Shown here: in pieces, positions 919-31,353 of the stretch
Layout of the letters: the number at the start of each line of letters is the position of its first letter
Numbering within the stretch: the stretch's first letter is position 1
NCBI RefSeq assembly: GCF_026151165.2
Contig: NZ_CP117849.1
Location: 547,258-579,257 of the forward strand
Length of the DNA: 32,000 bases
Reading direction: 5' to 3'
Source: Cryobacterium sp. SO2
GTDB taxonomy: Bacteria > Actinomycetota > Actinomycetes > Actinomycetales > Microbacteriaceae
Program-made: the position numbers and the translations under genes
Notes under the pieces: model-generated
What the model was told of the DNA's origin: nothing
The model's input: the letters and a program-made list of their open reading frames with translations, nothing else
Database searches by the model: none

Positions 919-2892
919 ATGGGCACCTTCGCGATCGGCGACACCGACTTCCTCCTCGACGGGCAGCCGTTCCAGGTGCTGGCCGGCGCCATCCACTACT
1001 TCCGGGTGCACCCGGACCACTGGGCCGACCGCATCCACAAGGCGAAGCTGATGGGCCTGAACACCATCGAGACCTATGTCGCCTGGAACGCGCACTCGCC
1101 CGCCCGCGGCGACTTCGACACCACCGGCCAGCTCGACCTGGCCCGGTTCCTCGACCTCATCGCCGCCGAGGGCCTGTACGCCATCGTGCGGCCCGGCCCG
1201 TTCATCTGCGCCGAGTGGGACAACGGGGGACTGCCCGGCTGGCTGTTCACCGACCCCGCCGTGGGCGTGCGCCGCAACGAACCGCTCTACATGGCGGCCG
1301 TGGCCGAGTACTTCGACCAGCTGCTGCCGATCGTGGCGTCCCGGCAGATCGACCGGGGCGGCCCCGTCATCCTCGTGCAGATCGAGAACGAGTACGGCGC
1401 CTACGGCAATGACAAGAGCTACCTGCGTGCCCTCGTGGAGCTCAACCGGGCCGGCGGCATCACGGTGCCGCTCACCACCATCGACCAACCCACCGACCAG
1501 ATGCTCTCCGACGGCAGCCTGCCCGAGCTGCACAAGACCGGCTCGTTCGGCTCTCGCGCCACCGAGCGCCTGGCCACCCTGCGCCGTCACCAGCCGACCG
1601 GCCCGCTGATGTGCGCCGAGTTCTGGAACGGCTGGTTCGACCACTGGGGCGCGCACCACCACACCACCTCCGCGGACGAGAGCGCCCGCGAGCTGGACGA
1701 CCTGCTCGCCACCGGCGCATCCGTGTCGCTGTACATGTTCACCGGCGGCACCAACTTCGGCTTCACCAACGGCGCCAACGACAAGGGCGTCTACCAGCCC
1801 ACCGTCACCTCCTACGACTACGACGCGCCCCTCTCCGAGAGCGGCGAGATCACGGCCAAGTACCTCGCCTTCCGCCAGGTGCTGGCCCGGTACGCGCCGG
1901 TGCCCGCCGAACTGCCCGCGCCCGCCACGGATGCGCCGGCCTTCACGGTGGCACTCGACGAGTCAGTCTCGCTCTGGGACGCGCTGCCCGAGCTGACCGA
2001 CACCGTCGCGCCGGCGGCGGCGCTCACCAGCAGCCCAGGAGTGCCCGCCGCATCCGGCCTGCCCAGCATCGCCGCCGCATCCGGCCTGCCCAGCATGGAT
2101 GCCCTCGGCCAGTACACGGGGTTCGCCCTGTATCGCAACCGGCTCACGCCGGGTGCCCGGGTGTTGTCGTTCGGCGAGGTGCGCGACCGCGCCCAGGTCT
2201 TCGTCGACGGCACCGCGGTGGGTGTGCTGCACCGCGACCACCACGACCGCTCGATCAGCCTGCCGCCGGGGGAGCGCCTCGACGTGCTCGTCGAAGACCA
2301 GGGCCGGGTCAACTACGGCCCGCGCATCGGCGAAGACAAGGGCCTGATCGGCCCGGCCACCCTCGACGGGGTGCAGCTCGGCGGCTGGCAGGTGCTGCCG
2401 CTGGATGTCGACGCTTTCGTCGCATCCGACAGCGCACTCTTCGCCGCGCAGCCGACCCACCGGGGCGCGGGGTCGCACGCCGTGGACCTGGACCTCGACG
2501 TGGATCTCGACCTCGCCGTGAACCTCACCCCCACCCCCACGCTCACCGCGCGGGCCACGGGTCCGAGCTCCACGGATGCCGCGGCCACCCTCACCCTGGT
2601 CCCGCCCGTCGACTCCGGGTCGCTCAGCGGTCCGGCGTTCGCGCGCGGCCGGTTCGACGCCCAGCCCGGCGTCGACCTGTTCCTCAGCACCGCCGGCTGG
2701 GGCAAGGGCCAGGCCTGGATCAACGGCTTCAACCTCGGCCGGTTCTGGGACCGCGGCCCGCAGACCACCCTCTACGTGCCCGGCCCGGCCTTGCGTGCGG
2801 AGAACGAGCTGGTCATCCTGTGCCTGCACGGCACCGAGAGCACCCTCGCCCGCTTCGTCTCCCGCCCCGACCTCGGCCACACCGACTTCTAA
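919..2892 (+). CDS. beta-galactosidase, GH35 family (657 aa)
   Basis: ATG at 919. The N-terminal catalytic domain reads FLLDGQPFQVLAGAIHYFRVHPDHWADRIHKAKLMGLNTIETYVAWNAHSP...PGPFICAEWDNGGLPGWL...QIENEYG, which is typical of GH35. The track ORF 64..2892 is the same frame read through from upstream. Confidence 0.9.
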   Translation: MGTFAIGDTDFLLDGQPFQVLAGAIHYFRVHPDHWADRIHKAKLMGLNTIETYVAWNAHSPARGDFDTTGQLDLARFLDLIAAEGLYAIVRPGPFICAEWDNGGLPGWLFTDPAVGVRRNEPLYMAAVAEYFDQLLPIVASRQIDRGGPVILVQIENEYGAYGNDKSYLRALVELNRAGGITVPLTTIDQPTDQMLSDGSLPELHKTGSFGSRATERLATLRRHQPTGPLMCAEFWNGWFDHWGAHHHTTSADESARELDDLLATGASVSLYMFTGGTNFGFTNGANDKGVYQPTVTSYDYDAPLSESGEITAKYLAFRQVLARYAPVPAELPAPATDAPAFTVALDESVSLWDALPELTDTVAPAAALTSSPGVPAASGLPSIAAASGLPSMDALGQYTGFALYRNRLTPGARVLSFGEVRDRAQVFVDGTAVGVLHRDHHDRSISLPPGERLDVLVEDQGRVNYGPRIGEDKGLIGPATLDGVQLGGWQVLPLDVDAFVASDSALFAAQPTHRGAGSHAVDLDLDVDLDLAVNLTPTPTLTARATGPSSTDAAATLTLVPPVDSGSLSGPAFARGRFDAQPGVDLFLSTAGWGKGQAWINGFNLGRFWDRGPQTTLYVPGPALRAENELVILCLHGTESTLARFVSRPDLGHTDF

Positions 2893-2905
2893 CCCCTTCC
2901 CGCCC

Positions 2906-2975
2906 CACTGTTCCCCATGCGGACAATTGCGTCCGGTGCGCCGGGCGCAAAAGTCCGATTCGGGCACAGTTGCAA
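2906..2975. repeat. family A ~70-bp nested palindrome, copy 1
   Basis: CACTGTTCCCCATGCGGACAATTGCGTCCGGTGCGCCGGGCGCAAAAGTCCGATTCGGGCACAGTTGC. Aligns with copies at 4906, 8665 and 10487. Confidence 0.85.
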
Positions 2976-3002
2976 CGCCTGGTGCGCCTGGTGCGCCCGT
3001 TC

Positions 3003-3113
3003 CGCTGGTTGAGCTTGTCGAAGCCAGGTGACCCGGTCTCGCTGGTTGAGCTTGTCGAAACCAGGTGACCCAGTCTCGCTGGTTGAGCTTGTCGAAACCA
3101 GGTGACCCAGTCT
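3003..3113. repeat. family D tandem array, 3 x 37 bp (CGCTGGTTGAGCTTGTCGAAACCAGGTGACCCAGTCT)
   Basis: Units start at 3003, 3040 and 3077 with only 2-3 substitutions. Each unit holds a CTGGTT/AACCAG hairpin and a GGTGACC palindrome. Confidence 0.9.
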
Positions 3114-3198
3114 GCGGTCCGCGCCTCGTGTGTATCCGCGGTGCCCGCATCCGCGCGCCCTGATGCTCGCGACGCATCCCACGCCCCCTCACCCTGCC

Positions 3199-3268
3199 GA
3201 GTTGCCCCACTGCGGACGAGTTGCCCCGGCGCACCGGAGCAACTCGTCCGTAGTGGGGCAACTCGCGC
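3199..3268. repeat. family B ~70-bp nested palindrome, intergenic copy
   Basis: GAGTTGCCCCACTG[CGGACGAGTTGC cccggcgcaccgga GCAACTCGTCCG]TAGTGGGGCAACTC. It has a perfect 12-bp inner stem and a 13-bp outer stem. Confidence 0.9.
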
Positions 3269-3279
3269 GCCGGATGCCC

Positions 3280-4692
3280 TCAGCCGCGACCGCCCACAGG
3301 CGGGCGCCGGTCGGCCCAGGGCTGCACGCGCTCCAGCTGGGCGCACACCGCGATCACCAGCTCCTCCGAGTTCGCCGGCCCCACCACCTGGCCGCTGAGC
3401 GGCAGCCCGTCCACGCTGAACCCGGTCGGGATCGCCGCTGCCGGGTTGCCCAGCACGTTCCAGATCGACGTGAACGATGCCGTGGGCGTCGCCGCGGCCA
3501 TCGCTGCCCAGAAACCGCGCCCGTCGAGCTGGCCCACAGGCACGGCGGGAGTGGGGGTGGTGGGCATCAGCAGCAGGTCGATGCCGTCGAACAGGCTGGC
3601 CAGAAACCGCTCGCCGTCGGCGATGCCGCGCCGCTCGGCGGCCGCACTGAACGCCAGCAACGGCCGGGCGATCCGCACCATCGTGCGGGTGCGCTTCTCC
3701 AGCAGCCGCGGATGCTCCACCCGCGCAGCCTCATCGCTCACCCCGCCGAGAACCTGCAGCATGAACGGCAGGGCCAGCTTCGGGTACGCGGGGGTAACTT
3801 CCACGACCTCGTGGCCGAGGTCACGCAGCGCCCGAGCCGTCCGGTGCAGGGCCTCCGTGGTCTCGGCATCCGCGGCCGGGCCGCCGCCGGGGTTCTTCAC
3901 CGCGAGCCCGATGCGCAGCCGGGCCGGCGCGGTCGTGGCGGCGGCCGCCAACGATCCGGTCCACGGCTGCGCGGAGAACCGGTCGGCCGCGGTGCTGCCC
4001 GCGACGGCGTCGTAGATCAGGGCGCTGTCGGCCACGCTGCGGGTCAGCGGGCCGAGCACCCCGAGGGAGCGCCAGAGGTCGGCGTTGGGCGCGGCGCTGA
4101 TCCGGCCCCGCTGCGGCTTGAGGCCGAACAGCCCGCAGTAGCTCGACGGCAGCCGGATCGACCCGCCGCCGTCGCCGCCGATACCGGCCGGCACCATGCC
4201 GCTGGCCACCGCGGCCGCGGTGCCGCCGCTCGAGCCGGCGGGGGAGCGCAGCGGATTCCACGGATTCCGGGTGTACCCGTTGGCGCTGGTCTCGGTCCAC
4301 GGCCAGATCCCGAATTCGGGCATCCGGGTCTTGCCCACGATCACGGCGCCGGCCGCGCGCAGCCGGCGCACCAGCTCGCTGTCCGCCGCGGCGGACGACG
4401 TCACGGATGCGCCGCCGTACGCGGTCGGCAGTCCCGCCACGTCGTTCTCGTCCTTGATGGCGATCGGCACCCCGTGCAACGGCCCACGCAGCCGGCCCTC
4501 CGCCTGCTCCCGGTCCAGCTCGTCCGCCTCGGCGAGGGCCTCGGCGCCGCGCACCCACGCGAAGGCGTTGAGCACCGGGTCGAGCCGGCCGATGCGCTCC
4601 AGACTGTGCTGCACTACCTCCCGCGCCGTCACCTCCCCGGTCGCGATCAGATCCCGCAGTTCACCAACGCCCCGAAATTCCAGATCGACCAC
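3280..4692 (-). CDS. amidase (amidase-signature family, 470 aa)
   Basis: GTG start at 4692, preceded by AAGGGGGA. The Gly/Ser-rich amidase signature AGSSGGTAAAVASG...GGSIRLPSSYCGLFGLKP is present. Confidence 0.9.
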   Translation of the reverse strand: MVDLEFRGVGELRDLIATGEVTAREVVQHSLERIGRLDPVLNAFAWVRGAEALAEADELDREQAEGRLRGPLHGVPIAIKDENDVAGLPTAYGGASVTSSAAADSELVRRLRAAGAVIVGKTRMPEFGIWPWTETSANGYTRNPWNPLRSPAGSSGGTAAAVASGMVPAGIGGDGGGSIRLPSSYCGLFGLKPQRGRISAAPNADLWRSLGVLGPLTRSVADSALIYDAVAGSTAADRFSAQPWTGSLAAAATTAPARLRIGLAVKNPGGGPAADAETTEALHRTARALRDLGHEVVEVTPAYPKLALPFMLQVLGGVSDEAARVEHPRLLEKRTRTMVRIARPLLAFSAAAERRGIADGERFLASLFDGIDLLLMPTTPTPAVPVGQLDGRGFWAAMAAATPTASFTSIWNVLGNPAAAIPTGFSVDGLPLSGQVVGPANSEELVIAVCAQLERVQPWADRRPPVGGRG

Positions 4693-4905
4693 GACGTTCC
4701 CCCTTCAGGTGCGGATGCCCGCACGTGCGGATGCCCGCAAATCGCGGACACCACCGAACTCTGAGTTCATCCTGCCGTGCTGCCCCGCCGCTGCGGGCCT
4801 CCCACGGGTCCGGCATGTAAACGCTGGGCTCACCAGTGTTAAAGCCTTGTTTCGGGAGGGGGCCCGCACGCCGCCCCGGCGGTCGCGCCGGGCCCACTCC
4901 CGTGC

Positions 4906-4975
4906 CAACTGTTCCCCGTACGGACAATTGCGCCCGGTGTGCCGGGACCATTTGTCCGGAGCGGGCACAGTTGCG
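4906..4975. repeat. family A nested palindrome, copy 2
   Basis: CAACTGTTCCCCGTACGGACAATTGCGCCCGGTGTGCCGGGACCATTTGTCCGGAGCGGGCACAGTTGCG, upstream of dnaX. Confidence 0.85.
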
Positions 4976-5133
4976 TGGGGTCCCGCACCGCGCGGCCGTC
5001 GGCGCCCGCACCCGGCGGCCGTCGGGCACTGCACCGTCCGGCTCCGGCATCGGGATGCCCGCGCTCGCCGCGCATCCGCCGCCCTGTGCACGACCCACCC
5101 GGGGTGTCGGTGGCAACAAGTACCATTGACCTC

Positions 5134-7995
5134 GTGGTTACCGCCCTGTATCGCCGTTACCGGCCAGAGACTTTTGCCGAAATGATCGGTCAGTCACAGG
5201 TGACCGATCCGCTCATGACCGCCCTGCGCACCAACAGGGTCAATCATGCCTACCTCTTCAGCGGACCCCGCGGCTGTGGTAAGACCACCTCCGCGCGCAT
5301 CCTGGCCCGCTGCCTCAACTGTGCAGAGGGCCCCACCGACACCCCCTGCGGCGTCTGCCCCAGCTGCGTCGAGCTCTCCCGCGACGGCAGCGGCTCCCTC
5401 GACGTGGTCGAAATCGACGCGGCCAGCCACAACGGTGTCGACGACGCCCGCGACATCCGCGAACGCGCCATCTTCGCGCCGGCCCGCGACCGCTACAAGA
5501 TCTTCATCCTCGACGAGGCGCACATGGTCACCCCGCAGGGCTTCAACGCGCTGCTCAAGATCGTGGAAGAGCCGCCGGAACACGTGAAGTTCATCTTCGC
5601 CACGACCGAGCCCGAGAAGGTCATCGGCACCATCCGCTCGCGCACCCACCACTACCCGTTCCGGCTGGTGCCGCCCGCACCCATGCTCGACTACGTGCAG
5701 CAGCTCTGCGACAGCGAGCACATGAGCGTTGCCCCCGGCGTGCTGCCGCTCGTGGTGCGCGCCGGCGGCGGCTCGCCCCGCGACACCCTCTCGCTGCTCG
5801 ACCAGCTGATGGCCGGCTCCGAGACGGATGCCATCGAGTACGAACGCGCCGTGGCCCTGCTCGGCTACACCAACGCGGCCCTGCTCGACGACGCCATCGA
5901 CGCCATCGCCGCCCGCGACTCGTCCTCGGCGTTCGACGCCGTCGACCGGGTGATCCAGACCGGCCAGGACCCGCGCCGCTTCGTCGAAGACCTGCTCGAG
6001 CGCATGCGCGACCTCATCATCGTGGCCGCCACCAGCGCCGCCGGTGCCGCCGCGGTGCTGCGCGGCGTGCCGCAGGACGAACTCGACCGGATGGCCGTGC
6101 AGGCCGCCAAGTTCGGCCCGGCCGAGCTGAGCCGCACCGCCGACATCCTCAACGCCGCCCTCACCGAGATGACCGGCGCCACCTCGCCGCGCCTGCACCT
6201 CGAACTCATGATCGCCCGCGCGCTCATCCCCGCCACCGACGACACCACCCGCGGCGCGCTCGCCCGCGTCGAACGCCTCGAACGCCGCATCGGCGTCGAC
6301 GGCGGCCCCACGGATGCGCCGGCCCCGGCCGCGCCCGCCGCCTCGGCCCCGCGCACGCCCGCCGCCCCGCCCGCCGGAGCCCCGTCCGCGGCCCCAGCTT
6401 CGAGTGCCGCCGCGCCGGCCGCAACCTCCCCGGCCTCGTCGGCGCCCGCCCCGGCCGGCTCGGGCTGGGCCACTCGCGTACCCGGAGCCCCGGCCGCAGT
6501 CCCTATCGAAACTGCCGCCGCCGACCGAGAGGCCTCCGGCGCCGTTCCGGCCGGGGCCGCTGCGTCCGCTGGCGCATCCGCCGGCGCAGGTTCCACCCCA
6601 GCCGCGGGTTCCACCGCCGGTGCGGCTTCCGCCACCGGAACCCCTGCCGCGTCTGGCGCGTCAGCCACCGGGGCTGCCGGCGCCGGAGCATCCGCCGCCA
6701 GCGGCCCGGTCACGCCCGCCGCCAGCCCGGCCGAACCCGCCGCGCCGGCCGCAGCTCCCGCGCGCCCGGTGGGCCCGGTCACCCTGGCGCAGATCAAGGA
6801 TGCCTGGCCGCAGATCCTCGACGCCGTCAAGGAGGTCAAGCTCAGCGCCTGGCTCGTCGTGTACACCGCGCGCGTGCTCGACCTGCGCGGCGAAGACGTG
6901 CTCGTGCTGTCCTTCCCCAGCGAGCAGGACATGCAGGGCTTCAAGGCGCAGCAGGCCCCTGGCCAGGGTGTCAGCGAGTTCCTCCGCGGCGCCATCGTCA
7001 AGGTGCTCGGTCTGCGCGTGAAGTTCATCGCCCGCGCCGACTCCGAGGCCTTCCCCTCGAACACCGGGCACGCCCCGGGCTCCGCTCCCGCCGCCGACCT
7101 GCCCTCCTCCGGACCAGTTGCCCCGGTGCAGCAGGGCAACTCGTCCGCTCCGGGGCAACTCGCGGATGCGCCGTCCCCGACTCCCTCCCGCGCGGCGCCG
7201 ACGGATGCCTCCGCGTCAGCGGATGCGCCGTCACTGGGCAGCACCCCGCCGGCGTCAGGCGCCCCCACCGCCGTGCCGTCAGCCGGTTCGTCCGCCTTCG
7301 GCGAGTCGTCCAGCAGCGCCACCGCAAGCGCCGGCGCAGCCACCTCAAGCGCCGGCGCAGCCACCTCAAGCACCGCCACCGCCACGCTCGCACCGCCCGC
7401 CACCTCCACCGGCTGGGCAACGGTGGTGATTCCCGGATCCGCCGCCGCCCTGGCCGCAGCCGAGACGGCAGCGACCGAGCCGGCCAGCATCGCCTCCTCC
7501 GCCAACGCGTCGGTCGCGGGTTCCCCCAGCGCGGCAACGGCAAGCGCGCCTGCGGTCTCCGCACCCGTTACCGGCTCGCCGGTCGCAGACGTCGGCCAGG
7601 GCGGACGAGCCGCGGCGTCGCAGTCGGCCCCAGAGCCCGACTACGCCCCCGAGCCCGACTTCGAGCCGCCCTTCGACGAGGAGCCGCCGCCCTACGACGA
7701 CCTCCCGCCCGACCCGCAGTCCTTCTCCGGTCCGCCGGAGACCGGTCGCGATGCCCGCTCGGCCCCGCAGCAGGCGCCGCGCCAACAGCAGGCCCCCGGC
7801 CAGTCGGCACCACCGGCATCCGCCCCGACCGCGCCGAACGCATCCGCCCAGCGCGGCGGCGCCCCGGCCCGCCGCTCGCCCGCGTTCGCGGAAAAGCAGC
7901 GTTACGGCGAGGCCGTGGTGCGCGAGATCCTCGGCGCCACCTTCATCGAAGAGCAGCCGCACGACCCGATCTCGCGACAGAGGAACGACAACTAA
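5134..7995 (+). CDS. dnaX: DNA polymerase III subunit gamma/tau (about 953 aa, very long low-complexity C-terminal half)
   Basis: VVTALYRRYRPETFAEMIGQSQV, Walker A GPRGCGKTT, zinc module CLNCAEGPTDTPCGVCPSC, DEAHM. GTG 5134 is chosen by N-terminal homology; GTG 5110 is an alternative start. The track ORF start at 4939 is upstream read-through. Confidence 0.9.
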   Translation: MVTALYRRYRPETFAEMIGQSQVTDPLMTALRTNRVNHAYLFSGPRGCGKTTSARILARCLNCAEGPTDTPCGVCPSCVELSRDGSGSLDVVEIDAASHNGVDDARDIRERAIFAPARDRYKIFILDEAHMVTPQGFNALLKIVEEPPEHVKFIFATTEPEKVIGTIRSRTHHYPFRLVPPAPMLDYVQQLCDSEHMSVAPGVLPLVVRAGGGSPRDTLSLLDQLMAGSETDAIEYERAVALLGYTNAALLDDAIDAIAARDSSSAFDAVDRVIQTGQDPRRFVEDLLERMRDLIIVAATSAAGAAAVLRGVPQDELDRMAVQAAKFGPAELSRTADILNAALTEMTGATSPRLHLELMIARALIPATDDTTRGALARVERLERRIGVDGGPTDAPAPAAPAASAPRTPAAPPAGAPSAAPASSAAAPAATSPASSAPAPAGSGWATRVPGAPAAVPIETAAADREASGAVPAGAAASAGASAGAGSTPAAGSTAGAASATGTPAASGASATGAAGAGASAASGPVTPAASPAEPAAPAAAPARPVGPVTLAQIKDAWPQILDAVKEVKLSAWLVVYTARVLDLRGEDVLVLSFPSEQDMQGFKAQQAPGQGVSEFLRGAIVKVLGLRVKFIARADSEAFPSNTGHAPGSAPAADLPSSGPVAPVQQGNSSAPGQLADAPSPTPSRAAPTDASASADAPSLGSTPPASGAPTAVPSAGSSAFGESSSSATASAGAATSSAGAATSSTATATLAPPATSTGWATVVIPGSAAALAAAETAATEPASIASSANASVAGSPSAATASAPAVSAPVTGSPVADVGQGGRAAASQSAPEPDYAPEPDFEPPFDEEPPPYDDLPPDPQSFSGPPETGRDARSAPQQAPRQQQAPGQSAPPASAPTAPNASAQRGGAPARRSPAFAEKQRYGEAVVREILGATFIEEQPHDPISRQRNDN
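7096..7169 (+). repeat. family B nested palindrome embedded in-frame in dnaX
   Basis: GACCTGCCCTCCTCCGGACCAGTTGCCCCGGTGCAGCAGGGCAACTCGTCCGCTCCGGGGCAACTCGCGGATGC. Translated as ADLPSSGPVAPVQQGNSSAPGQLADA. Confidence 0.8.
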
Positions 7996-8595: not shown

Positions 8596-8664
8596 CCGCG
8601 CCCGCCCCGGCCCGGGCGCCCTGCGCCCGTCCCCGTCGCGCCCGCCGCGGCCCGGGTGCCGCGA

Positions 8665-8734
8665 CAACTGTTCCCCATGCGGACATCTGCGCCCGGTGTG
8701 CCGGCACCATTTGTCCGCTTCGGCAACACTTGTG
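8665..8734. repeat. family A nested palindrome, copy 3
   Basis: CAACTGTTCCCCATGCGGACATCTGCGCCCGGTGTGCCGGCACCATTTGTCCGCTTCGGCAACACTTGTG. Confidence 0.85.
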
Positions 8735-8805
8735 CCCGGATGCCCGGATGCCCGGATGCCCGGATGCCCGGATGCCCGGATGCCCGGATGCCCGGATGCC
8801 CGGAC
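8734..8805. repeat. octanucleotide microsatellite (GCCCGGAT) x 8 plus one variant unit
   Basis: Perfect units start at 8734, 8742, 8750, 8758, 8766, 8774, 8782 and 8790. The variant GCCCGGAC is at 8798. Confidence 0.95.
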
Positions 8806-8879
8806 GGGCACCTCGTGCGCCGCACGTCTGCCCGCATATAGCGCTCCACCGTGACACGAACCGGGCTTCTCCCCTCTAT

Positions 8880-9010
8880 GACTGGCCTATTTTGGCTAGT
8901 GCGGAGGCGCTCGCGACTAGCAAGAATGGGCCAGTCATCGAACCCGCGGAGATGACTGGCCCGGAATTGCTAGTGCGGAGGCGCTCACGACTAGCAAGAA
9001 TGGGCCAGTC
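8880..9010. repeat. family C: pair of ~57-bp hairpins (8880-8936, 8954-9010)
   Basis: The arms GACTGGCC(C/T)ATTTT(C/G)GCTAGT ... ACTAGCAAGAATGGGCCAGTC are conserved around a ~15-nt loop. The same arms recur at 25770-25910. Confidence 0.85.
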
Positions 9011-9116
9011 AGCGTCGGCGCGCGCACACTCCGTCACATGAACGACCGAGAATACGAACGCATTTAGGATGGGAACGCGGGATGTCTCCGCGTACCCGGA
9101 AGCCAGGAGTGCCCAC

Positions 9117-10412
9117 GTGAGCCTGATCGTGCAGAAGTTCGGCGGATCATCCGTTGCCGACGCCGAGAGCATCAAACGCGTCGCCAAGCGGATCGTCGAC
9201 ACCAAGAAGGCCGGCAACGACATCGTCGTGGCCGTCTCCGCGATGGGCGACTCCACCGACGAGCTCCTCGACCTCGCCCACGAGGTCACGCCCATCCCCG
9301 CGCCCCGCGAGCTCGACATGCTCCTCACCGCGGGCGAGCGCATCTCCATGGCCCTGCTCGCCATGGCCATCAAGAGCATGGGCTACGACGCCCGCTCGTT
9401 CACCGGCAGCCAGGCCGGCATGATCACGGATGCCCAGCACGGCGCCGCGCGCATCGTCGACGTCACCCCCGGCCGGCTCCGCGACGCGCTCGACGAGGGC
9501 GCCATCGTCATCGTCGCCGGCTTCCAGGGCTTCAACCGCGACACCAAAGACATCACCACCCTCGGCCGCGGCGGCTCCGACACCACGGCCGTGGCCCTGG
9601 CCGCCGCCCTCGGCGCCGACATCTGCGAGATCTACACGGATGTCGACGGCATCTTCACCGCCGACCCCCGCGTCGTGCCCAAGGCACACAAGCTCGAACG
9701 CGTCTCCAGCGAGGAGATGCTCGAACTCGCCGCCGCCGGTGCCAAGGTGCTCTATATCCGTGCCGTGGAATACGCCCGCAGGCACGGTGTCACCCTGCAC
9801 GTGCGATCCTCGTTCAACAACAACACCGGCACCATCGTCTACAACGCGGGCGCCCCCAGCCCGCTTGCCGCCGCAGTATCGAATGGAGAGACAGTGGAAG
9901 AGCCCATCATCGCGGGGGTCGCCGCCGACCTCAGCGAGGCCAAGGTCACGGTCGTCGGAGTCCCCGACATCCCCGGCAAGGCCGCGCAGATCTTCAAGAT
10001 CGTCGCCAAGACCAACGCCAACGTCGACATGATCGTGCAGAACGTGTCGGCTGCCGCCACCGGACTGACCGACATCTCGTTCACGCTGCCCAAGTCCGAG
10101 GGCCAGCGGGTGCTCACCGCGCTCACGAACGAGCAGGAGAACGTCGGCTTCGCCGGCCTCCAGTACGACGACCAGATCGGCAAGCTCGCCCTGGTCGGCG
10201 CCGGGATGCGCACCAACACCGGCGTCTCCGCCAAGCTGTTCGAGGCGCTGTTCGAGGCCGGCATCAACATCGAGATGATCTCCACCAGCGAGATCCGCAT
10301 CTCGGTCGTCACCCGCGCCGACACCATCAACCAGGCCCTGCGCGTGGTACACACTGCGTTCGGCCTCGACAGCGACGCGGATGCCGTCGTGCACGGCGGC
10401 ACCGGCCGCTAA
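9117..10412 (+). CDS. ask: aspartate kinase (431 aa)
   Basis: GTG 9117 lies 7 nt after AGGAG. Contains [19 protein letters not shown], the kinase core, and two C-terminal ACT-like regions. It lies directly upstream of asd, as in other actinobacteria. Confidence 0.93.
9894..10412 (+). CDS. putative in-frame aspartate kinase beta subunit (172 aa) from an internal start
   Basis: An in-frame GTG at 9894 follows GGAGAG (9885-9890). The product starts [23 protein letters not shown], which parallels the nested lysC-beta known in Corynebacterium and Mycobacterium. Confidence 0.45.
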
Positions 10413-10486
10413 GCCGCGAACCACGCCCGGCCGCGCCCGCCCGGCAGCTGCTCCCCGAGCATCCGCCCCGAGGGTCCCGCGGCGAC

Positions 10487-10556
10487 CAACTGTTCCCGAA
10501 GCGGACATTTACGCCCGGTACGCCGGGACCATTTGTCCGCATCGGCAACAGTTGCG
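10487..10556. repeat. family A nested palindrome, copy 4
   Basis: CAACTGTTCCCGAAGCGGACATTTACGCCCGGTACGCCGGGACCATTTGTCCGCATCGGCAACAGTTGCG. Confidence 0.85.
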
Positions 10557-17220: not shown

Positions 17221-17233
17221 CGATGCGCCCGCC

Positions 17234-17304
17234 CGCTGGTTGAGCGTGTCGAAACCCGGTGACCCGCCCGCTGGTTGAGCCTGTCGAAACCCGGTGAGCC
17301 GTCA
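17234..17304. repeat. family D tandem array, 2 x 35 bp (CGCTGGTTGAGC(G/C)TGTCGAAACCCGGTGA)
   Basis: Units start at 17234 and 17269, between convergent genes. Confidence 0.85.
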
Positions 17305-19938: not shown

Positions 19939-20335
19939 CGCTGGTCGAGCTTGTCGAGACCCCGTGACGTGCGTATGTGTCGCGAGTTCGGCTCGCCGGG
20001 TCTCGACGGGCTCGACCAGCGGAGGGGTCACCTCCCGCGCAGATGGCCGCGACGTGCTTGCGGTTCGCCCCCACGTCGCTGGTCGAGCTTGCCGAGACCC
20101 CGTGACGTGCGTGTGTGTCGCGAGTTCGGCTCGCCGGGTCTCGACGGGCTCGACCAGCGGAGGGGTCACCTCCCGCGCAGATCGCCGCGACGTGCCTGCG
20201 GTTCGAGCCCATCTCGCTGGTCGAGCTTGTCGAGACCCCGTGACGTGCGCGCGTGTCGCGAGTTCGGCTCACCGGGTCTCGACAGGCTCGACCAGCGGAG
20301 GGGTCACCTCCCGCGCAGAAGGCCGCGCTCAACGG
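19939..20335. repeat. composite family D tandem array, 3 x 138 bp
   Basis: Units start at 19939, 20077 and 20215 and are nearly identical. Each holds 23-nt inverted arms CGCTGGTCGAGCTTGTCGAGACC / GGTCTCGACGGGCTCGACCAGCG and a GGAGG..CCTCC hairpin. Confidence 0.92.
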
Positions 20336-22646: not shown

Positions 22647-24125
22647 GTGAATTTACAACCGAAGGTCGATGTCGCCCTGATCGGTGGGGGCATCATGAGC
22701 GCCACTCTCGCCACCCTGCTCAGCGAATTGCAGCCAGACTGGAACATCCAGGTCTACGAGCGCCTGGGCGAGCTCGCCCAGGAGAGTTCGAACCCGTGGA
22801 ACAACGCCGGAACCGGCCATGCCGCGCTTTGCGAGCTCAACTACATGCCGCAGGCGCCCGACGGCTCCGTCACGCCGGAGAAGGCCGTGGCCATCAACGA
22901 GCAGTTCCAGATCAGCCGCCAGCTCTGGGCGCACCTGGTGGAGACCGGCGTGTTGCCCGAGCCGGAGAAGTTCATCAACTCCACCCCGCACATGACCTTC
23001 GTGCACGGCGCCTCCAACGTGGACTACCTGCGCAAGCGCCGTGACGCTCTCGCCGACCAGCCGCTGTTCGCCGGCCTCGAATACAGCGAGGACCCGGCCG
23101 TGATCGGTCAGTGGACGCCGCTGCTCACCAAGAAGCGCGCCGCCAAGCAGAAGATCGCCGCCACCCGCATCGCCTCCGGCACCGACGTGGACTTCGGCGC
23201 CGTCACCCGCTACCTCTTCGACTCGCTCAAGAAGCGTGGCGTGGATGTGCACGTCAACCAGCAGGTCACCTCCCTCAAGCAGCTCGAGGACGGCTCCTGG
23301 CGGCTCAAGCTGCTCAGCCTGGTGGGCCGGTACACCAACACGGTCGAGGCCAAGTTCGTCTTCGTCGGCGCCGGCGGCGGAGCCCTCGCGCTGCTGCAGA
23401 AGAGCGGCATCCCCGAGATCAAGGGCTTCGGCGGTTTCCCGATCAGCGGCCAGTTCCTGCGCACCTCCAACCCGGCGATCGTGGCCCAGCACCAGGCCAA
23501 GGTCTACGGCAAGGCCGCCGTGGGGGCCCCGCCGATGTCGGTGCCGCACCTCGACACCCGGGTAGTGGATGGCGAGACTTCACTTTTGTTCGGCCCGTTC
23601 GCCGGCTTCAGCCCCAAGTTCCTCAAGCGCAGCACCTGGTTCGACCTGCCGTTCTCGGTGCGCCCGCACAACCTGGTGCCGATGCTCGCCGTGGCGAAGA
23701 ACAACTTCGGCCTGATGAAGTACCTGATCGGCGAGGTCTTCGCCTCGCGAAAGGCCAAGCTCGACGCGCTGCGCGAGTTCATGCCCACCGCCCAGGCCAA
23801 GGACTGGGAGCTGATCACCGCCGGGCAGCGCGTGCAGGTGATGAAGAAGGACGCCAAGGCCGGCGGCGTGCTGCAGTTCGGCACCGAGGTCATCACCTCC
23901 GCCGACGGCAGCATCGCGGGCTTGCTCGGGGCGTCACCCGGAGCATCCACCGCGGCGCCGATCATGGTCGACCTGTTGCAGCGCTGTTTCCCGGGGGAGT
24001 ACTCCCGTTGGGAGCCGCGCCTGCGCGAGATGATCCCCAGCCTGGGCACCAAGCTCAGCGACGACCCCGCCGCTGCGGCCGCCTCCCTGGCCGCCACCGC
24101 AGCGACTCTGCACCTCACGGCCTAG
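22647..24125 (+). CDS. mqo: malate:quinone oxidoreductase (492 aa)
   Basis: FAD fold DVALIGGGIMSATLATLL, the block NAGTGHAALCELNY, and full-length similarity to Mqo as I know it. Confidence 0.93.
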   Translation: MNLQPKVDVALIGGGIMSATLATLLSELQPDWNIQVYERLGELAQESSNPWNNAGTGHAALCELNYMPQAPDGSVTPEKAVAINEQFQISRQLWAHLVETGVLPEPEKFINSTPHMTFVHGASNVDYLRKRRDALADQPLFAGLEYSEDPAVIGQWTPLLTKKRAAKQKIAATRIASGTDVDFGAVTRYLFDSLKKRGVDVHVNQQVTSLKQLEDGSWRLKLLSLVGRYTNTVEAKFVFVGAGGGALALLQKSGIPEIKGFGGFPISGQFLRTSNPAIVAQHQAKVYGKAAVGAPPMSVPHLDTRVVDGETSLLFGPFAGFSPKFLKRSTWFDLPFSVRPHNLVPMLAVAKNNFGLMKYLIGEVFASRKAKLDALREFMPTAQAKDWELITAGQRVQVMKKDAKAGGVLQFGTEVITSADGSIAGLLGASPGASTAAPIMVDLLQRCFPGEYSRWEPRLREMIPSLGTKLSDDPAAAAASLAATAATLHLTA

Positions 24126-24133
24126 GTCGCATC

Positions 24134-24188
24134 CGCTGGTCGGGCCTGTCGAGACCTCGCGACAGGATCTCGACAAGCTCGATCAGCG
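24134..24188. repeat. family D single palindromic copy
   Basis: CGCTGGTCGGGCCTGTCGAGA ... TCTCGACAAGCTCGATCAGCG, immediately after the mqo stop. Confidence 0.8.
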
Positions 24189-25765: not shown

Positions 25766-25769
25766 CCGA

Positions 25770-25910
25770 GACTGGCCCATTTTCGCTAGTTCTCACCCCT
25801 CCCGCACTAGCGATTCTGGGCCAGTCATCGTTGCGCCCCGCGCGCTACCCCGGGACTGGCCCATTTTCGCTAGTTGAGTGGGCCCGGGCACTAGCAAATC
25901 CGGGCCACTC
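25770..25910. repeat. family C: second pair of ~57-bp hairpins (25770-25826, 25854-25910)
   Basis: The arms match 8880-9010 (GACTGGCCCATTTTCGCTAGT ... ACTAGC..A..TGGGCCAGTC), but the loop sequences differ. Confidence 0.85.
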
Positions 25911-25950
25911 CAGCCGTTCCTGCCCACCGTGCTCGTCCCTACTCGCAGTA

Positions 25951-27282: not shown

Positions 27283-27330
27283 GTCGCACCCCTACCCGCG
27301 TCCCCGCCGCGGGCCGTGCCGCCCGGTCTG

Positions 27331-27405
27331 GTCTCGCGGCCCGTGATAAGACCCGCGGCACGTGTTCCAACGCGTGCCGCCGCACCAAACACGTGCAGCG
27401 ACGGA
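27331..27405. repeat. family E structured repeat, copy 2
   Basis: GTCTCGCGGCCC...CGCGGCACGTGTTCCAACGCGTGCCGCCGCACCAAACACGTGCAGCGACGG. Confidence 0.75.
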
Positions 27406-27579
27406 TGCCCCGCCGTGGTTAGCACTCCAACGAGCGCCCGCGCACCTCGCCGCTCCATCCGTCTCATGCCCACCGCGACCCTGGGTTCTGCCCCCACGCG
27501 CGCTGGGAGGCGCCACACCCCCAGCCGGGTGGCCGCCGAATCCCGCACACCTGAGATAATCAGAGGCGGAGAGGGCGCA

Positions 27580-28986
27580 ATGTCACTTGGGTTACCCGGC
27601 CACCTGGTGCAGGCCACGCTCAGCCGCGCCCTGGCCCGCGCCAGCCACTGGTTCGGCCTTGTCTGCCTGGCCGGCGCGCTGGCGTCGGTGCTGGCGCTGA
27701 GCATGTTCCCCGTCACCGACCGGCTGCAGCTCACCGTCGCGGCGATCCTCGGCATGGGCGCCCTGCTCGCGCTCCTCGCCCGCTGGCGCACGGTGCCGCT
27801 CACCATCGCCTACCTCGTGCTCGGCGCCGCCTGCACCTACCTGTTCACCGGCGCGGTGCTGGGCATGCCCGGCGTGTTCTCGTCCTCGGACATGTTCCTC
27901 ATCTCGCTGCCCAAGATGGCCCTGATCATGGTCGGCGGCGCCGGTTCCGGCGCGCTCGTGGGCGTGCTGTGGAGCACCCTCGGGTTCCTCCTCGCCGAGA
28001 TCGCCGCCACCCTGGCCGTGGCGCAGACCGCCGTGCCCGACCGGCCCGACGTGTTCACCATCGTCACCTACCTCGTGCTCGTGGGCGTGATGCTGCTCGA
28101 CGGCCTCACCCGCCGCACCGGCCGCGCCGCCCAGCCGGCCATCCACAAGGCGGTGCAAGACGACGAGTCCCGCACCCTGCGCCACGACTTCGACGTGCGG
28201 GCGATCGCGCTGATGCACGACACCACCCTCAACCAGCTTGTTTCCGTGGCCCGCGCCAAGCCCGGCCCGCTCAGCCGCGGCCTCGAGGCCGGCATCCGCG
28301 AAACCCTGCACACCCTCGCCGACCGCGACTGGCTCACCCACGTCGACGAACGCACCGGCGCCGCGCCCGCCGGCAGCGACGGTTGGTTGGGCAGCGCCGT
28401 GTTCCGCGCCATCGACCGCAGCCGAGACCGCGGCTTGGTCATCGACATCACCGGCGACAAGGATGCGCTCGCCCGCCTTGCCCCCGAAAGCGACCGGGAA
28501 CTCGGCCTCGCCGTTCAACAGTGCCTGGTGAACGTCCTCCAGCACTCCGGCATCGCTTCCGCCGAGGTGGTCATCGACGCCGACGACGAGAACGTGTCGG
28601 TGATGGTGCTCGACGCCGGCACCGGCTTCATGGAATCCGAGACCGGCAGCGACCGGCTCGGCCTGCGCCAGTCGGTGCGCAAGCGCATCGAGCGCCTCGG
28701 CGGCTCCGTGCAGATCTGGTCGCGCCCCGGCGCCGGCACCTCGGTGCTGCTCACCCTGCCCGCCCCGGCGCCCGCCCCCGCGGTCTCCGCCGAGTTGCCC
28801 ATTTCCGGACCAGTTGCCCCGGTACAGCAGGGCAACTCGTCCGCGGCGGGGCAACTCGCGGATGCCCTCTCCACCGCCGATGCCCCCACGCTCCGGACCC
28901 CAGCGGGCCCCGACACACCTACGACCCCCGGGACCTCGGCCCCGGACGCAGAGCCCGCGACCCCCACTGGCCCGGTGACCCCGTGA
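27580..28986 (+). CDS. membrane sensor histidine kinase, HisKA_3/NarX-like (468 aa)
   Basis: ATG 27580 follows GGCGGAGAGGG. About 170 aa of TM helices, the H-box-like ALMHDTTLNQL, and the ATPase part CLVNVLQHS...LDAGTGF...GLRQSVRKRIERLGG...GAGTSV. The C-terminal tail carries a family B repeat. Confidence 0.75.
   Translation: MSLGLPGHLVQATLSRALARASHWFGLVCLAGALASVLALSMFPVTDRLQLTVAAILGMGALLALLARWRTVPLTIAYLVLGAACTYLFTGAVLGMPGVFSSSDMFLISLPKMALIMVGGAGSGALVGVLWSTLGFLLAEIAATLAVAQTAVPDRPDVFTIVTYLVLVGVMLLDGLTRRTGRAAQPAIHKAVQDDESRTLRHDFDVRAIALMHDTTLNQLVSVARAKPGPLSRGLEAGIRETLHTLADRDWLTHVDERTGAAPAGSDGWLGSAVFRAIDRSRDRGLVIDITGDKDALARLAPESDRELGLAVQQCLVNVLQHSGIASAEVVIDADDENVSVMVLDAGTGFMESETGSDRLGLRQSVRKRIERLGGSVQIWSRPGAGTSVLLTLPAPAPAPAVSAELPISGPVAPVQQGNSSAAGQLADALSTADAPTLRTPAGPDTPTTPGTSAPDAEPATPTGPVTP
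28792..28865 (+). repeat. family B nested palindrome embedded in-frame in the kinase tail
   Basis: GAGTTGCCCATTTCCGGACCAGTTGCCCCGGTACAGCAGGGCAACTCGTCCGCGGCGGGGCAACTCGCGGATGC. Translated as AELPISGPVAPVQQGNSSAAGQLADA. Confidence 0.85.
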
Positions 28987-30533
28987 CCGCCCGCCGCGCC
29001 ACCCAGCAGCGCCTCGACCCGCTGGGCACCCTCGCCGCCTGGCCGCTGGCGCCGGGCCTCGCCGCCGTGGTGCTCTGCTACTCCGTGATCGCCACCGTGC
29101 TGCAGTCCGACCAGGTGCAGAACCCCCTGCTGGCCACCCTCGCCGTGCTCGCCATGGCCGCCGCCGCCGGCACCCTGGTGATCGCCACCCAGCCGGCGCA
29201 CTCCCCGTTCGGCCGCCAGGCGCACATCGTGATGGTGACCCTGGCCGTGCTCGGTTACCTCTTCGAGGCGCTCAGCCGCTGGGGCAGCAACGAACTCGTG
29301 CAAGACGACTTCGGCCCCATCAGCATCGGCCTGCTCCTGCTGGCCCTGGCCCCCTACCGGCCCTGGCGCGAGATCGCCCTCTCCGGCGCGATCGCCAGCG
29401 TCATCGCGATCGCCATCACCCTGCCGCAAGCCGGCACCTTCCGCATCGACGTGCCCGTGGCGGTCTACGCCATCGTGTCGGTCGTGCAGATCCTCGCGCC
29501 CGCCGCCGCCGGCGCCGCCTACTCCCGCCGGGTCGTCACGTCCATCCTCGCCTGGCAGACGGATGCGCGCCGCGCCATCGTCGCCCGCACCGAGGAGGCC
29601 CGCGGCCAGCTGGCCCGGGCCGTGGTGGAGCAGCAGGTCACCGCGCTCAAGTCCGGGGTGATCCCGTTCCTCACCGACGTGCTCGAGCGCGGCACCGTCA
29701 CCGCCCTCGACATCGCCCAGGCCGGCCAGCTGGCCGCCGAGGTGCGCCGCACCCTCGTGGCCGAGATCGACCGCACCTGGCTGGACTCCGTCGTCACCCG
29801 CGAACGAGCCGCCCTCGCCGAACGCGGCACTCCCGGCCTGCTCGTCGTGGCTGACCCCGAGCACCGCGCCACCGTGTTCGGGGCCGAACAACGCGCCGCC
29901 ACCGCGGCCCTGATCGGCGCCCTCTGCGCCGCCCCCGGTTTCGACCCGCACAGCCTGGTGGTGCAGATCACCGGCTCGCCCCAGCCGCGCACGCCCGGCG
30001 CCCGCTCGCGGCCGGCCCCTTCCGCCGACGTGCCCACCTCCGCACGAGTTGCCCCGGCGCAGCGGAGCAACTCGTCCGCACCGGGGCACCTCGCGGCACC
30101 GGCCCCCAGCCCCGGCGGCCGCCCGGCACCGGCCCCGTCCGCCCACCTGCCCACGTCCGCACGAGTTGCCCCGCCGCAGCGGAGCAACTCGTCCGCACCG
30201 GGGCACCTCGCGGATGCGCACGCCCCCGCACTCGGCCAGACGCCGCTGGCCATCCTCACCGGCCCGCCCGCCCCGGCCCAGTTCGACACCATCACCCTGC
30301 AGGCCGCGCTCGACGTGCCGCCGCGCAAGGTGCGGGCGCTGCTGCGCCCCTACCTGGGCGTCATCCGGGTGGTCTTCGGCAACGTGCGCGTCACCGTGCG
30401 GCGGCCCTCGCTCACCATCGAGTTCGACGCCGTGCGCGAGAACACCTCCAGCGCCGCCGCGCCCACGGCCCTCGCCACCCCGGCCACCCCCATCGGTGTG
30501 CGCGCGAACAAAGCTCCGCGCCAAGTACGCTGA
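28983..30533 (+). CDS. membrane protein of unknown function, translationally coupled to the kinase (516 aa)
   Basis: GTG 28983 overlaps the kinase TGA (GTGA). About 190 aa of TM helices, then a helical and mixed region that I cannot assign to a family. The track ORF start at 27969 is off-gene read-through. Confidence 0.6.
   Translation: MTARRATQQRLDPLGTLAAWPLAPGLAAVVLCYSVIATVLQSDQVQNPLLATLAVLAMAAAAGTLVIATQPAHSPFGRQAHIVMVTLAVLGYLFEALSRWGSNELVQDDFGPISIGLLLLALAPYRPWREIALSGAIASVIAIAITLPQAGTFRIDVPVAVYAIVSVVQILAPAAAGAAYSRRVVTSILAWQTDARRAIVARTEEARGQLARAVVEQQVTALKSGVIPFLTDVLERGTVTALDIAQAGQLAAEVRRTLVAEIDRTWLDSVVTRERAALAERGTPGLLVVADPEHRATVFGAEQRAATAALIGALCAAPGFDPHSLVVQITGSPQPRTPGARSRPAPSADVPTSARVAPAQRSNSSAPGHLAAPAPSPGGRPAPAPSAHLPTSARVAPPQRSNSSAPGHLADAHAPALGQTPLAILTGPPAPAQFDTITLQAALDVPPRKVRALLRPYLGVIRVVFGNVRVTVRRPSLTIEFDAVRENTSSAAAPTALATPATPIGVRANKAPRQVR
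30027..30218 (+). repeat. two family B copies (30027-30096, 30144-30218), 117 bp apart, in-frame within the membrane protein gene
   Basis: The core CGCACGAGTTGCCCCG(G/C)CGCAGCGGAGCAACTCGTCCGCACCGGGGCACCTCGCGG occurs twice. Translated as SARVAP(A/P)QRSNSSAPGHLA. Confidence 0.85.
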
Positions 30534-30600
30534 AGCAGACCGACAGCGCCCCTCGCGGCCGCTGGACGATTTCAACAGGGCAAGGGCGGTACCGGCGGTA

Positions 30601-31353
30601 ATGGCGAAACTGTATTTTCGATACGGCGCGATGAACAGCGGCAAGAGCACCTCTATGCTCCAGGCCGCCTACAACTATGAGGAGCGCGGCCACCGCGTGC
30701 TGCTGGCCAAACCGTCCGTCGACACCAAGGGCGACCGCGGCATCCTCTCCCGCCTCGGCGTCACCCGCGGCGTCGACTTCCTGCTCACGCCCGAGACGGA
30801 TGCGTACGCCCTGTTCCAGCAGCACCGCGCCGCTACCCTCGAAGCCACCGGCCTCGACGTGAGCGCCCTGCTCGTCGACGAGGCGCAGTTCCTCACCGAA
30901 ACCCAGGTCGACGACCTGCTGCGCATCGCGATCATCGAGAACGTGCCGGTGCTCGCGTACGGCATCCGCACCGACTTCCAGACCGTCGCGTTCCCCGGCA
31001 GCCGCCGGCTGCTCGAGGTGGCGCACAGCCTCGAAGAACTCAAGACCATCTGCCGATGTGGGCGCAAGGCCGTGTTCAACGGCCGCCAGGTGAACGGCGC
31101 CTTCGTCTTCGACGGCGACCAGGTGGCCATCGACGGCGTCGAGGTCACCTACGAGTCGCTCTGCGGCTCCTGCTACCTCGAGGAGAGCCACGGCGTGCTG
31201 AACAACCGCCGCCGGGAACCGGTCGAACCAGCCGCGCTTGCAGACCGGGGCCGGGAGCGGGGGCGCTCAACCGAACAACGGTCGCAGAACGCGAACCCGG
31301 TTGTCGAGAGCACCCCAGCCAGCCCCCCGGCGTGTTCCCCCTCCTCACCTTAG
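30601..31353 (+). CDS. tdk: thymidine kinase with a ~50-aa low-complexity C-terminal extension (250 aa)
   Basis: P-loop GAMNSGKST, VDEAQF, and zinc ligands CRCGRKA...CGSCY. Confidence 0.92.
   Translation: MAKLYFRYGAMNSGKSTSMLQAAYNYEERGHRVLLAKPSVDTKGDRGILSRLGVTRGVDFLLTPETDAYALFQQHRAATLEATGLDVSALLVDEAQFLTETQVDDLLRIAIIENVPVLAYGIRTDFQTVAFPGSRRLLEVAHSLEELKTICRCGRKAVFNGRQVNGAFVFDGDQVAIDGVEVTYESLCGSCYLEESHGVLNNRRREPVEPAALADRGRERGRSTEQRSQNANPVVESTPASPPACSPSSP

Follow-up and report, generated by a model that had tools for sequence, protein, structure and literature searches.

The question raised by this locus is how a DNA hairpin that is otherwise found mostly between genes came to be translated inside a membrane protein gene, and why it is present there twice. 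The locus lies in a 32-kb stretch of the chromosome of Cryobacterium sp. SO2 (the window, in whose positions all coordinates below are given unless another locus is named), in which a sequence-only reading had noticed two tandem in-frame copies of a palindromic element within the open reading frame (ORF) at 28983-30533. With a probability of about 0.78, we favour the explanation that a palindrome resembling the repetitive extragenic palindromes (REPs) of other bacteria inserted in-frame into a disordered loop of the encoded protein, was then duplicated, and is tolerated as near-neutral selfish DNA rather than being a functional domain.

The tandem pair and its host gene

28983..30533, plus strand: host gene BJQ94_02685 of Cryobacterium sp. 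SO2; 516 aa, five to six transmembrane helices, found only in Cryobacterium
30026..30093, plus strand: element copy 1, a nested palindrome of about 70 nt, translated as DVPTSARVAPAQRSNSSAPGHLA; its parts are an eroded outer left arm (CGACGTGCCC), an intact inner hairpin (CACGAGTTGCCCCGG-CGCA-GCGGAGCAACTCGTC) and an outer right arm (GGGGCACCTCG)
30143..30210, plus strand: element copy 2, 117 nt downstream of copy 1, translated as HLPTSARVAPPQRSNSSAPGHLA
29994..30213, plus strand: segment duplicated in tandem (2 x 117 bp, 2 x 39 codons), delimited by Tandem Repeats Finder; each 117-bp unit holds about 32 nt of Pro/Ala-rich flank and one element
Within the insert: predicted tryptic peptides that span it, for example SNSSAPGHLAAPAPSPGGR and VAPPQR

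The cores of the two copies (CGCACGAGTTGCC) start at 30041 and 30158 and are spaced by 117 nt or 39 codons, exactly as the sequence-only reading had placed them, and Tandem Repeats Finder reports the block at 29994-30213 with a period of 117, 1.9 copies and 90% matches. A 33-nt core pattern (three mismatches or fewer) matches in the window only at 3218, 30046 and 30163, where shuffled sequences lead one to expect 0.00 matches. The proposed homology of both blocks to an intergenic palindrome at 3199-3268 is borne out by ungapped identities of 57/68 and 54/68 and an nhmmer E value of about 1e-21. The outer left arms have diverged (GACGTGCCCACCT at 30027 and CACCTGCCCACGT at 30144), and RNA fold analysis agrees with the earlier description of eroded outer arms around an intact inner hairpin: the 84-nt stretch at 30018-30101 around copy 1 folds with -43.1 kcal/mol (z = -3.9) and the 84-nt stretch around copy 2 with -46.4 kcal/mol (z = -5.6). 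Both copies are in-frame within an intact ORF, for which NCBI annotates a single 516-aa protein, and the third-position GC content (at least 0.9) keeps the frame of this ORF on both sides of the tandem block.

The ORF is 100% identical to the hypothetical protein BJQ94_02685 on the 4.10-Mb contig, which matches no Pfam or NCBIfam family. All of the 76 homologues found are from Cryobacterium or from unlabelled metagenomes. Its hydropathy profile and an AlphaFold model give five to six transmembrane helices followed by long helices within residues 1-335 (predicted local distance difference test, pLDDT, mostly >80), in line with the membrane protein that had been proposed. Residues 339-431, a loop that holds both element copies, have a pLDDT below 50, and the strands and helix at 435-482 (pLDDT >90) belong with residues 288-331, so that in the model the C-terminal alpha/beta domain is split by the variable loop. 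The site had been taken for an otherwise non-repetitive cytoplasmic region; it is rather a hypervariable, disordered loop within this domain, presumably on the cytoplasmic side of the membrane. The best fold matches in a structure search were histidine-kinase catalytic domains, with weak scores (E of at least 0.16), and we take the histidine-kinase-like fold predicted for the protein as a hint and not as a classification. The gene order histidine kinase (27316-28986, HATPase_c), host gene, thymidine kinase is conserved in strain AP23 and in C. soli, and the host gene adjoins the kinase gene by a GTGA stop/start overlap; the product might serve as a kinase-like partner that is confined to Cryobacterium.

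When 25 orthologues are aligned, the copies fall into a hypervariable, gap-rich stretch between conserved parts, at which all other sequences are gapped. The orthologue comparison that the sequence-only reading had called for gave a uniform answer, as the peptide motif was found in the SO2 protein only (1/76) and all 75 orthologues have no copy. When the DNA is aligned with that of AP23 and C. soli, homology resumes at CTCGGCCAGAC, and SO2 has about 207 extra nucleotides. The block therefore appears to be a lineage-specific gain in a variable and tolerated loop.

A family of palindromes next to stop codons

3198..3274, plus strand: intergenic copy, the best-preserved one of the window, an almost perfect hairpin of about 33 bp
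7095..7162, plus strand (aligned over 7086-7162): copy in the low-complexity linker of DnaX (ORF 4939-7995, residues 721-742), about 20 aa past the LGLRVKFIAR anchor
28791..28858, plus strand: copy in the C-terminal tail of the upstream histidine kinase (27316-28986), ELPISGPVAPVQQGNSSAAGQLA

Together with the tandem pair, these make up the five copies that repeat search and alignment found in the window, all scoring best on the plus strand and with a mean column identity of 76%. An attempt to divide them into two clean subfamilies, which would have revealed the source of the insertion, was dropped, as pairwise identities of 53-60/68 (the tandem pair aside) give no clear assignment. The intergenic copy starts 11 nt past the stop codon of a minus-strand amidase gene (3280-4692) and folds with -71.1 kcal/mol (z = -11.2). 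Outside the window, the core pattern AGTTGCCCC-N11-GCAACTCGTCC was found at 34 loci of a collection of 185,579 species genomes, all of them Cryobacterium (C. lactosi, C. adonitolivorans, C. arcticum, C. inferilacus, sp. N22 and one metagenome-assembled genome), and at 36 metagenome loci from one series of Joint Genome Institute (JGI) samples. The pattern has no match in the viral contigs, plasmids and phages searched, and an origin from any of these is unsupported.

Profile detection in the window and in 72 fetched loci yielded 88 copies in total. Of these, 46 align without gaps across 84 columns, with the consensus CGCCGAGTTGCCCC-nnnn-CGGACGAGTTGCCCCGG-nnnn-CCGGGGCAACTCGTCCG-nnnn-GGGGCAACTCGCGG; the element is thus built from four copies of one 10-mer, twice forward as GAGTTGCCCC and then twice reverse as GGGGCAACTC. 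Conservation in this alignment is 90% or more in the arms and 30-70% in the spacers and loop, and 82% of cells pair in the nested hairpin compared with about 40% when the pairing partner is slid. Covariation was absent: the alignment scores 0.041 where shuffled versions average 0.056, and 499 of 500 of these score at least as high. Since there was also no Rfam match at gathering thresholds, a structured non-coding RNA family was rejected; the arms are conserved in sequence and not merely in their pairing. No paper on palindromic repeats of Cryobacterium or Microbacteriaceae was found in open-access text, and the copies appear to form a previously undescribed REP-like palindrome family of Cryobacterium.

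In most copies (61/88), the start of the element is 0-29 nt (median 11) past a stop codon whose ORF is backed by third-position GC. In 21 of these 61 cases the copy lies between two convergent stops, and the spacer that separates the convergent genes is taken up by the element. Eleven of the 88 copies are translated and 16 are in other or unresolved contexts; the 77 non-coding copies occur in both orientations relative to their neighbour genes. From this placement a role of the stop-adjacent copies as a 3'-end hairpin, either as terminator or as stabiliser, is plausible, though unproven. A canonical intrinsic terminator was rejected, because the hairpin lacks a following T tract: past the element, the alignment reads CGG... 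and is not rich in T. A 115-aa protein of a representative library (P0078) has a folded-looking N-terminal part that runs into an element copy at the C-terminus (AAAELPACGRVAPPRRSNSSATGHLG...), which suggests that ORFs are sometimes extended into stop-adjacent copies.

These positions bear on an alternative in which the hairpins are used inside the gene as well. According to this idea, the intragenic copies regulate, either by pausing ribosomes or RNA polymerase or as an internal attenuator or RNase site, their copy number is selected, and the targets would be the C-terminal half of the host protein and the downstream thymidine kinase. The inner hairpins are indeed intact in both copies, whose 84-nt stretches fold with -43 to -46 kcal/mol, the family keeps a tightly constrained distance from stop codons, and tandem pairs have two independent origins. 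REPs of E. coli that lie no more than about 15 nt from a stop codon are said to affect translation, reportedly a 2015 result of Liang, Rudd and Deutscher. Against this, the tandem copies have the weakest 68-nt core hairpins among the coding copies (-37.3 and -35.3 kcal/mol), their outer arms are eroded, no U-tract follows them, and no orthologue needs the block. We therefore consider a regulatory function of the pair unlikely.

A probable single insertion, then a tandem duplication

9714-9797 and 9828-9911 of locus L035: tandem pair in the kinase tail of AP23, in-frame, period 114 nt, about 20 nt of flank duplicated

When the SO2 sequence is compared with itself at a lag of 117, 64/68 element positions are identical between the copies. 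The match goes on over 32 nt of the Pro/Ala-rich left flank, where 26/32 positions agree; of the in-frame 32-nt lags in the ORF, just 0.03% do as well. The two copies have the variants GCACGAG (inner left arm), GGAGC and CACCTCG (outer right arm) in common, and GCACGAG and CACCTCG are missing from nearly all of the other 86 copies. They are also each other's nearest relatives, with 64/68 identical positions compared with at most 59/68 to the other window copies. Because the flank is duplicated and the private substitutions are common to both copies, the pair is a segmental tandem duplication including about 30 nt of non-element flank and not the product of two insertions. The sequence-only reading had left the choice between older and duplicated insertions; the duplication part of that suggestion stands, with element and flank copied as one 117-bp segment, and separate older insertions do not.

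It could be argued that the element tends to insert beside an existing copy, as in the REP clusters known as bacterial interspersed mosaic elements (BIMEs), and that the two copies arrived independently. Pairs do recur, in the AP23 kinase tail and in an ArsA gene with copies 264 nt apart and unrelated flanks, REP dimers and clusters are known from other bacteria (PMC3733652), and about 14 nt per 117-nt period mismatch at lag 117. The homology running 32 nt past the element into unique flank, the rare substitutions in both copies and their closest mutual relationship all argue the other way, and leave independent insertion with very little to recommend it. At the kinase-tail site, SO2 and N22 have one copy, AP23 has two in tandem and C. 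soli has none, and the AP23 pair, with its duplicated flank, is an independent case of the same kind of tandem duplication.

We therefore suggest the following course of events. The usual niche of the element is the few bases right after stop codons, often the whole spacer between convergent genes, where the transcript can fold into a very stable hairpin. Rare in-frame copies in disordered linkers, loops or tails would survive, because the arms are free of stop codons and one frame gives a small, hydrophilic peptide. In the SO2 lineage, one copy would have entered the hypervariable loop of BJQ94_02685, and a 117-bp segment comprising the element and about 30 nt of flank would then have been tandemly duplicated, likely when replication slipped or switched template at the hairpin from one short GC-rich direct repeat to another; stimulation of slippage by a hairpin is in keeping with the general instability of palindromes. 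This would have lengthened the loop by 78 residues with the frame unbroken. Afterwards, the outer arms would have eroded and the two peptide copies diverged freely, which is what makes the insert look like tolerated, near-neutral selfish DNA. The two units differ at eight codons, six of them nonsynonymous, which indicates that the peptide is under little constraint. Decay is also supported by the hairpins, which are less stable in coding copies (median -43.1 kcal/mol) than in non-coding ones (-52.4 kcal/mol; Mann-Whitney p = 0.0012).

Translated copies use a single frame

516-586 and 780-854 of locus L052 (metagenome contig Ga0247732_10012859): copies at two sites of an ArsA ATPase gene, 264 nt apart, with unrelated flanks
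3898-3967 of locus L032 (C. arcticum SK-1) and 396-473 of locus L062 (a metagenome relative): copies at the same site of an ABC-transporter ATPase gene, between the core and the C-terminal subdomain

The 11 translated copies go back to six independent coding events, in DnaX, the histidine-kinase tail, the host gene at 28983-30533, the ABC ATPase and, twice, ArsA. All of them are read in one frame, ELPxSGRVAPxxRGNSSAxGQLA, for which the chance would be about (1/3)^5 = 0.004 if the three frames were equally likely, and all have the same orientation relative to the gene, an observation that is possibly biased by the construction of the profile from window copies. None of the six frames has a stop codon in the conserved arms, and in most copies five or all six frames are open. 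The used frame gives a small, hydrophilic, cysteine-free peptide. The peptides of the other two frames are rich in Arg and Cys, so that the use of a single frame is most simply read as the outcome of a translational filter. An apparent read-through in a different frame, at locus L008, was rejected, because this ORF is no more than the antisense shadow of a LacI-like gene, in the divergent region upstream of dnaX.

The DnaX copy is absent from all 120 DnaX homologues that were retrieved. SO2 DnaX is about 950 aa long, compared with mostly 620-730 aa in the retrieved full-length homologues, and has a low-complexity stretch of about 270 aa between the end of the LGLRVKFIAR domain and the conserved C-terminal QRYGEAVVREILGATFIEEQ motif. 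The protein search did not return SO2 DnaX itself; it did return the host protein of the tandem pair.

A fixed frame in all translated copies is also what would be expected if the peptide LPxSG...GNSS...GQLA were a selected motif or domain and the palindrome incidental to it, and LPxSG superficially resembles the sortase signal LPxTG. However, 77/88 copies are non-coding and lie in both orientations, and a profile of the peptide found two matches (E values of 2e-7 and 8e-6) among 1.84 billion protein cluster representatives, so few that it cannot be regarded as a protein domain. The hosts are unrelated, and those that are recognised (DnaX, ArsA, the ABC ATPase and the histidine kinase) hold the insert in soluble parts; no membrane anchor follows the motif, the differences between the tandem units are mostly nonsynonymous and the region is modelled as disordered. 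A selected protein repeat is therefore most improbable. A profile of the doubled peptide found nothing in an index of 5.8 billion proteins, a search that also missed the host protein and is uninformative, probably because low-complexity sequence was masked.

Least credible of all is an assembly artefact in which the second copy arose during repeat resolution: repeats and strong hairpins are error-prone in assemblies and an exact look-up of the host protein in an assembly index gave no independent assembly, but the copies differ at 10 of about 103 positions and are thus not a collapsed or expanded identical repeat, the frame is kept (117 = 39 x 3), the contig is a complete 4.10-Mb chromosome, and a similar tandem pair is present in the independent genome of AP23.

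Points that weigh against tolerated selfish DNA

Several observations sit less well with the explanation by insertion, duplication and tolerance. The exact junctions and a target-site duplication could not be defined against AP23 and C. soli, because the linker is too diverged between the three genomes. The mobility of the element would follow from presence/absence differences between species, and no transposase is among the neighbour genes named in the window and the syntenic loci, where no dedicated search for the REP-associated tyrosine transposases (RAYTs) was made. Four of the five window copies are coding compared with 7/83 elsewhere, an excess for which the explanation gives no reason. 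The comparison of hairpin stability between coding and non-coding copies draws on copies that are not all independent. A terminator role of the usual copies finds no help in the flanking sequence, as there is no T/U tract on either side of the hairpin and a terminator scan gave no sites at 2900-3400 and 28700-30700. Finally, simple decay should make spacers and arms diverge alike, so that arms which are strongly conserved but do not covary suggest some constraint on the sequence itself, which the explanation leaves unnamed.

Other palindromic repeats in the window

2864-2972, 4865-4973, 8624-8732 and 10446-10554: sister family on the same nested-palindrome scaffold with other arms
3003-3113 (tandem, x3), 17228-17301 (x2), 19939-20327 and 24118-24170: family with a 35-37-nt unit, CGCTGGTTGAGCTTGTCGAAACCAGGTGACCC
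8878-8940, 8952-9014, 25768-25830 and 25852-25914: third family, a 63-nt nested palindrome
8733-8804: perfect 8-nt microsatellite, TGCCCGGA x9, downstream of recR and beside a copy of the sister family

The window is unusually rich in palindromic repeats. The sister family reads CAACTGTTCCCC .. CGGAC-AATTGCG-CCCGG loop CCGGG-ACCATTT-GTCCG .. GGGCACAGTTG, and its four copies apparently all lie between genes. The pairs CGGAC/GTCCG and CCCGG/CCGGG are the sole features that it has in common with the GAGTTGCCCC family, and they may be a common recognition tag. The 35-37-nt unit is embedded in a 138-nt unit (x2.8) at 19939, and this family adjoins the intergenic copy of the element. The third family, GACTGGCCC..GCTAGT..ACTAGC..GGGCCAGTC, occurs as two adjacent pairs.

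Comparison with known repeat systems

The classic case of palindromes that are translated in-frame is that of the Rickettsia palindromic elements (RPEs; Ogata et al. 2000, summarised in PMC10969869 and PMC3733652). Like the Cryobacterium element, RPEs are short, dispersed palindromic repeats, part of which lie in-frame in unrelated genes including housekeeping genes, with a conserved peptide, a fixed frame, sites compatible with the host fold and sometimes two elements per ORF; the 11 translated copies described here, from six events and in one frame with a conserved peptide, show the same defining behaviour. The differences are equally clear. A sequence relationship is lacking, as far as a core pattern found in Cryobacterium only can tell and with no direct alignment to the RPE consensus made, and the element is about 70 nt long compared with 100-150 bp for RPEs. 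It belongs to a free-living, high-GC actinobacterium and not to an obligate intracellular alpha-proteobacterium, and 61/88 of its copies are stop-adjacent and 11/88 coding, whereas nearly half of the first-described RPEs of R. conorii are within ORFs.

REP families are found past the ends of ORFs, where the neighbouring genes are unidirectional or converge (Di Nocera et al. 2013, PMC3733652). Several species also have intragenic REPs, many of them in replication and repair genes; an ORF sometimes holds two, and there are REP clusters that encode 43-82 aa (PMC3733652). In the broad sense, the Cryobacterium element behaves as a REP: it is a short, GC-rich, imperfect palindrome with five copies in 32 kb, mostly extragenic and downstream of ORFs, it has heterogeneous loops and a copy content that varies between species, and its occasional intragenic copies include one in dnaX. 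In contrast to a REP, which is a 20-40-bp stem-loop or a head-to-head dimer, it forms one long nested hairpin from four 10-mers that are not themselves palindromic. It also falls outside the GTAG and CGTC superfamilies. CGTC-tagged REPs have an 8-9-bp stem starting with AT, a loop of 4-5 nt and a CCA tail (PMC3733652), whereas the inner stem here is about 16 bp and GC-rich and there is no CCA tail. The letters CGTC do occur within CTCGTCCG (CTCGTCC), where the sister family has TTTGTCCG; as the sister family keeps just CGGAC/GTCCG and CCCGG/CCGGG, the match looks coincidental. Since stem length, tag and tail do not fit, we do not regard the element as a sequence member of the RPE, GTAG or CGTC groups.

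Transposable elements of the miniature inverted-repeat type (MITEs) with intragenic in-frame fusions include ERIC, BOX, Nezha and others (PMC10969869). They resemble the Cryobacterium element in being small (about 70 nt or more), non-autonomous and made up of inverted repeats, with translational fusions possible. However, no parent insertion sequence with matching terminal inverted repeats is known for the Cryobacterium element, which is wholly one hairpin and does not consist of terminal repeats around an unrelated core. With intrinsic terminators it has in common a stable GC-rich hairpin a few nucleotides past stop codons, often common to two convergent genes, but besides the missing T/U tract it differs in being a repeated sequence family and not a gene-specific hairpin.

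What the element means for Cryobacterium

A more far-reaching idea is that the element is recognised by a protein and coupled to translation termination or 3'-end formation, and that it is an active generator of new disordered linkers of variable length in actinobacterial proteins. The first part is suggested by the conserved GAGTTGCCCC arms without covariation, the variable spacers, the median distance of 11 nt from stop codons and the sister family with which it has just CGGAC/GTCCG and CCCGG/CCGGG in common; the second by the single coding frame and orientation together with hairpin-stimulated tandem duplication on two occasions (117 and 114 nt). We regard this as a speculation with the odds well against it; if it were true, the element would here be altering a loop of a histidine-kinase-like membrane protein.

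Returning to insertion, duplication and tolerance, the locus reveals no new kind of system, as the element works like RPEs and intragenic REPs. It would mean, though, that translated palindromic repeats, classically known from Rickettsia and a few proteobacteria, are also present in a free-living, culturable, high-GC actinobacterium, in a family that follows clear rules, as its translated copies keep to one frame and to disordered sites and its hairpins are weaker within genes. Follow-on tandem duplication would lengthen protein loops by tens of residues, and for annotation the family would explain the odd inserts of low complexity that particular Cryobacterium lineages have in DnaX, kinases and transporters. 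The family may therefore offer a tractable system in which to study the translational filtering of selfish hairpin DNA, the evolution of linkers and the recognition of such repeats.

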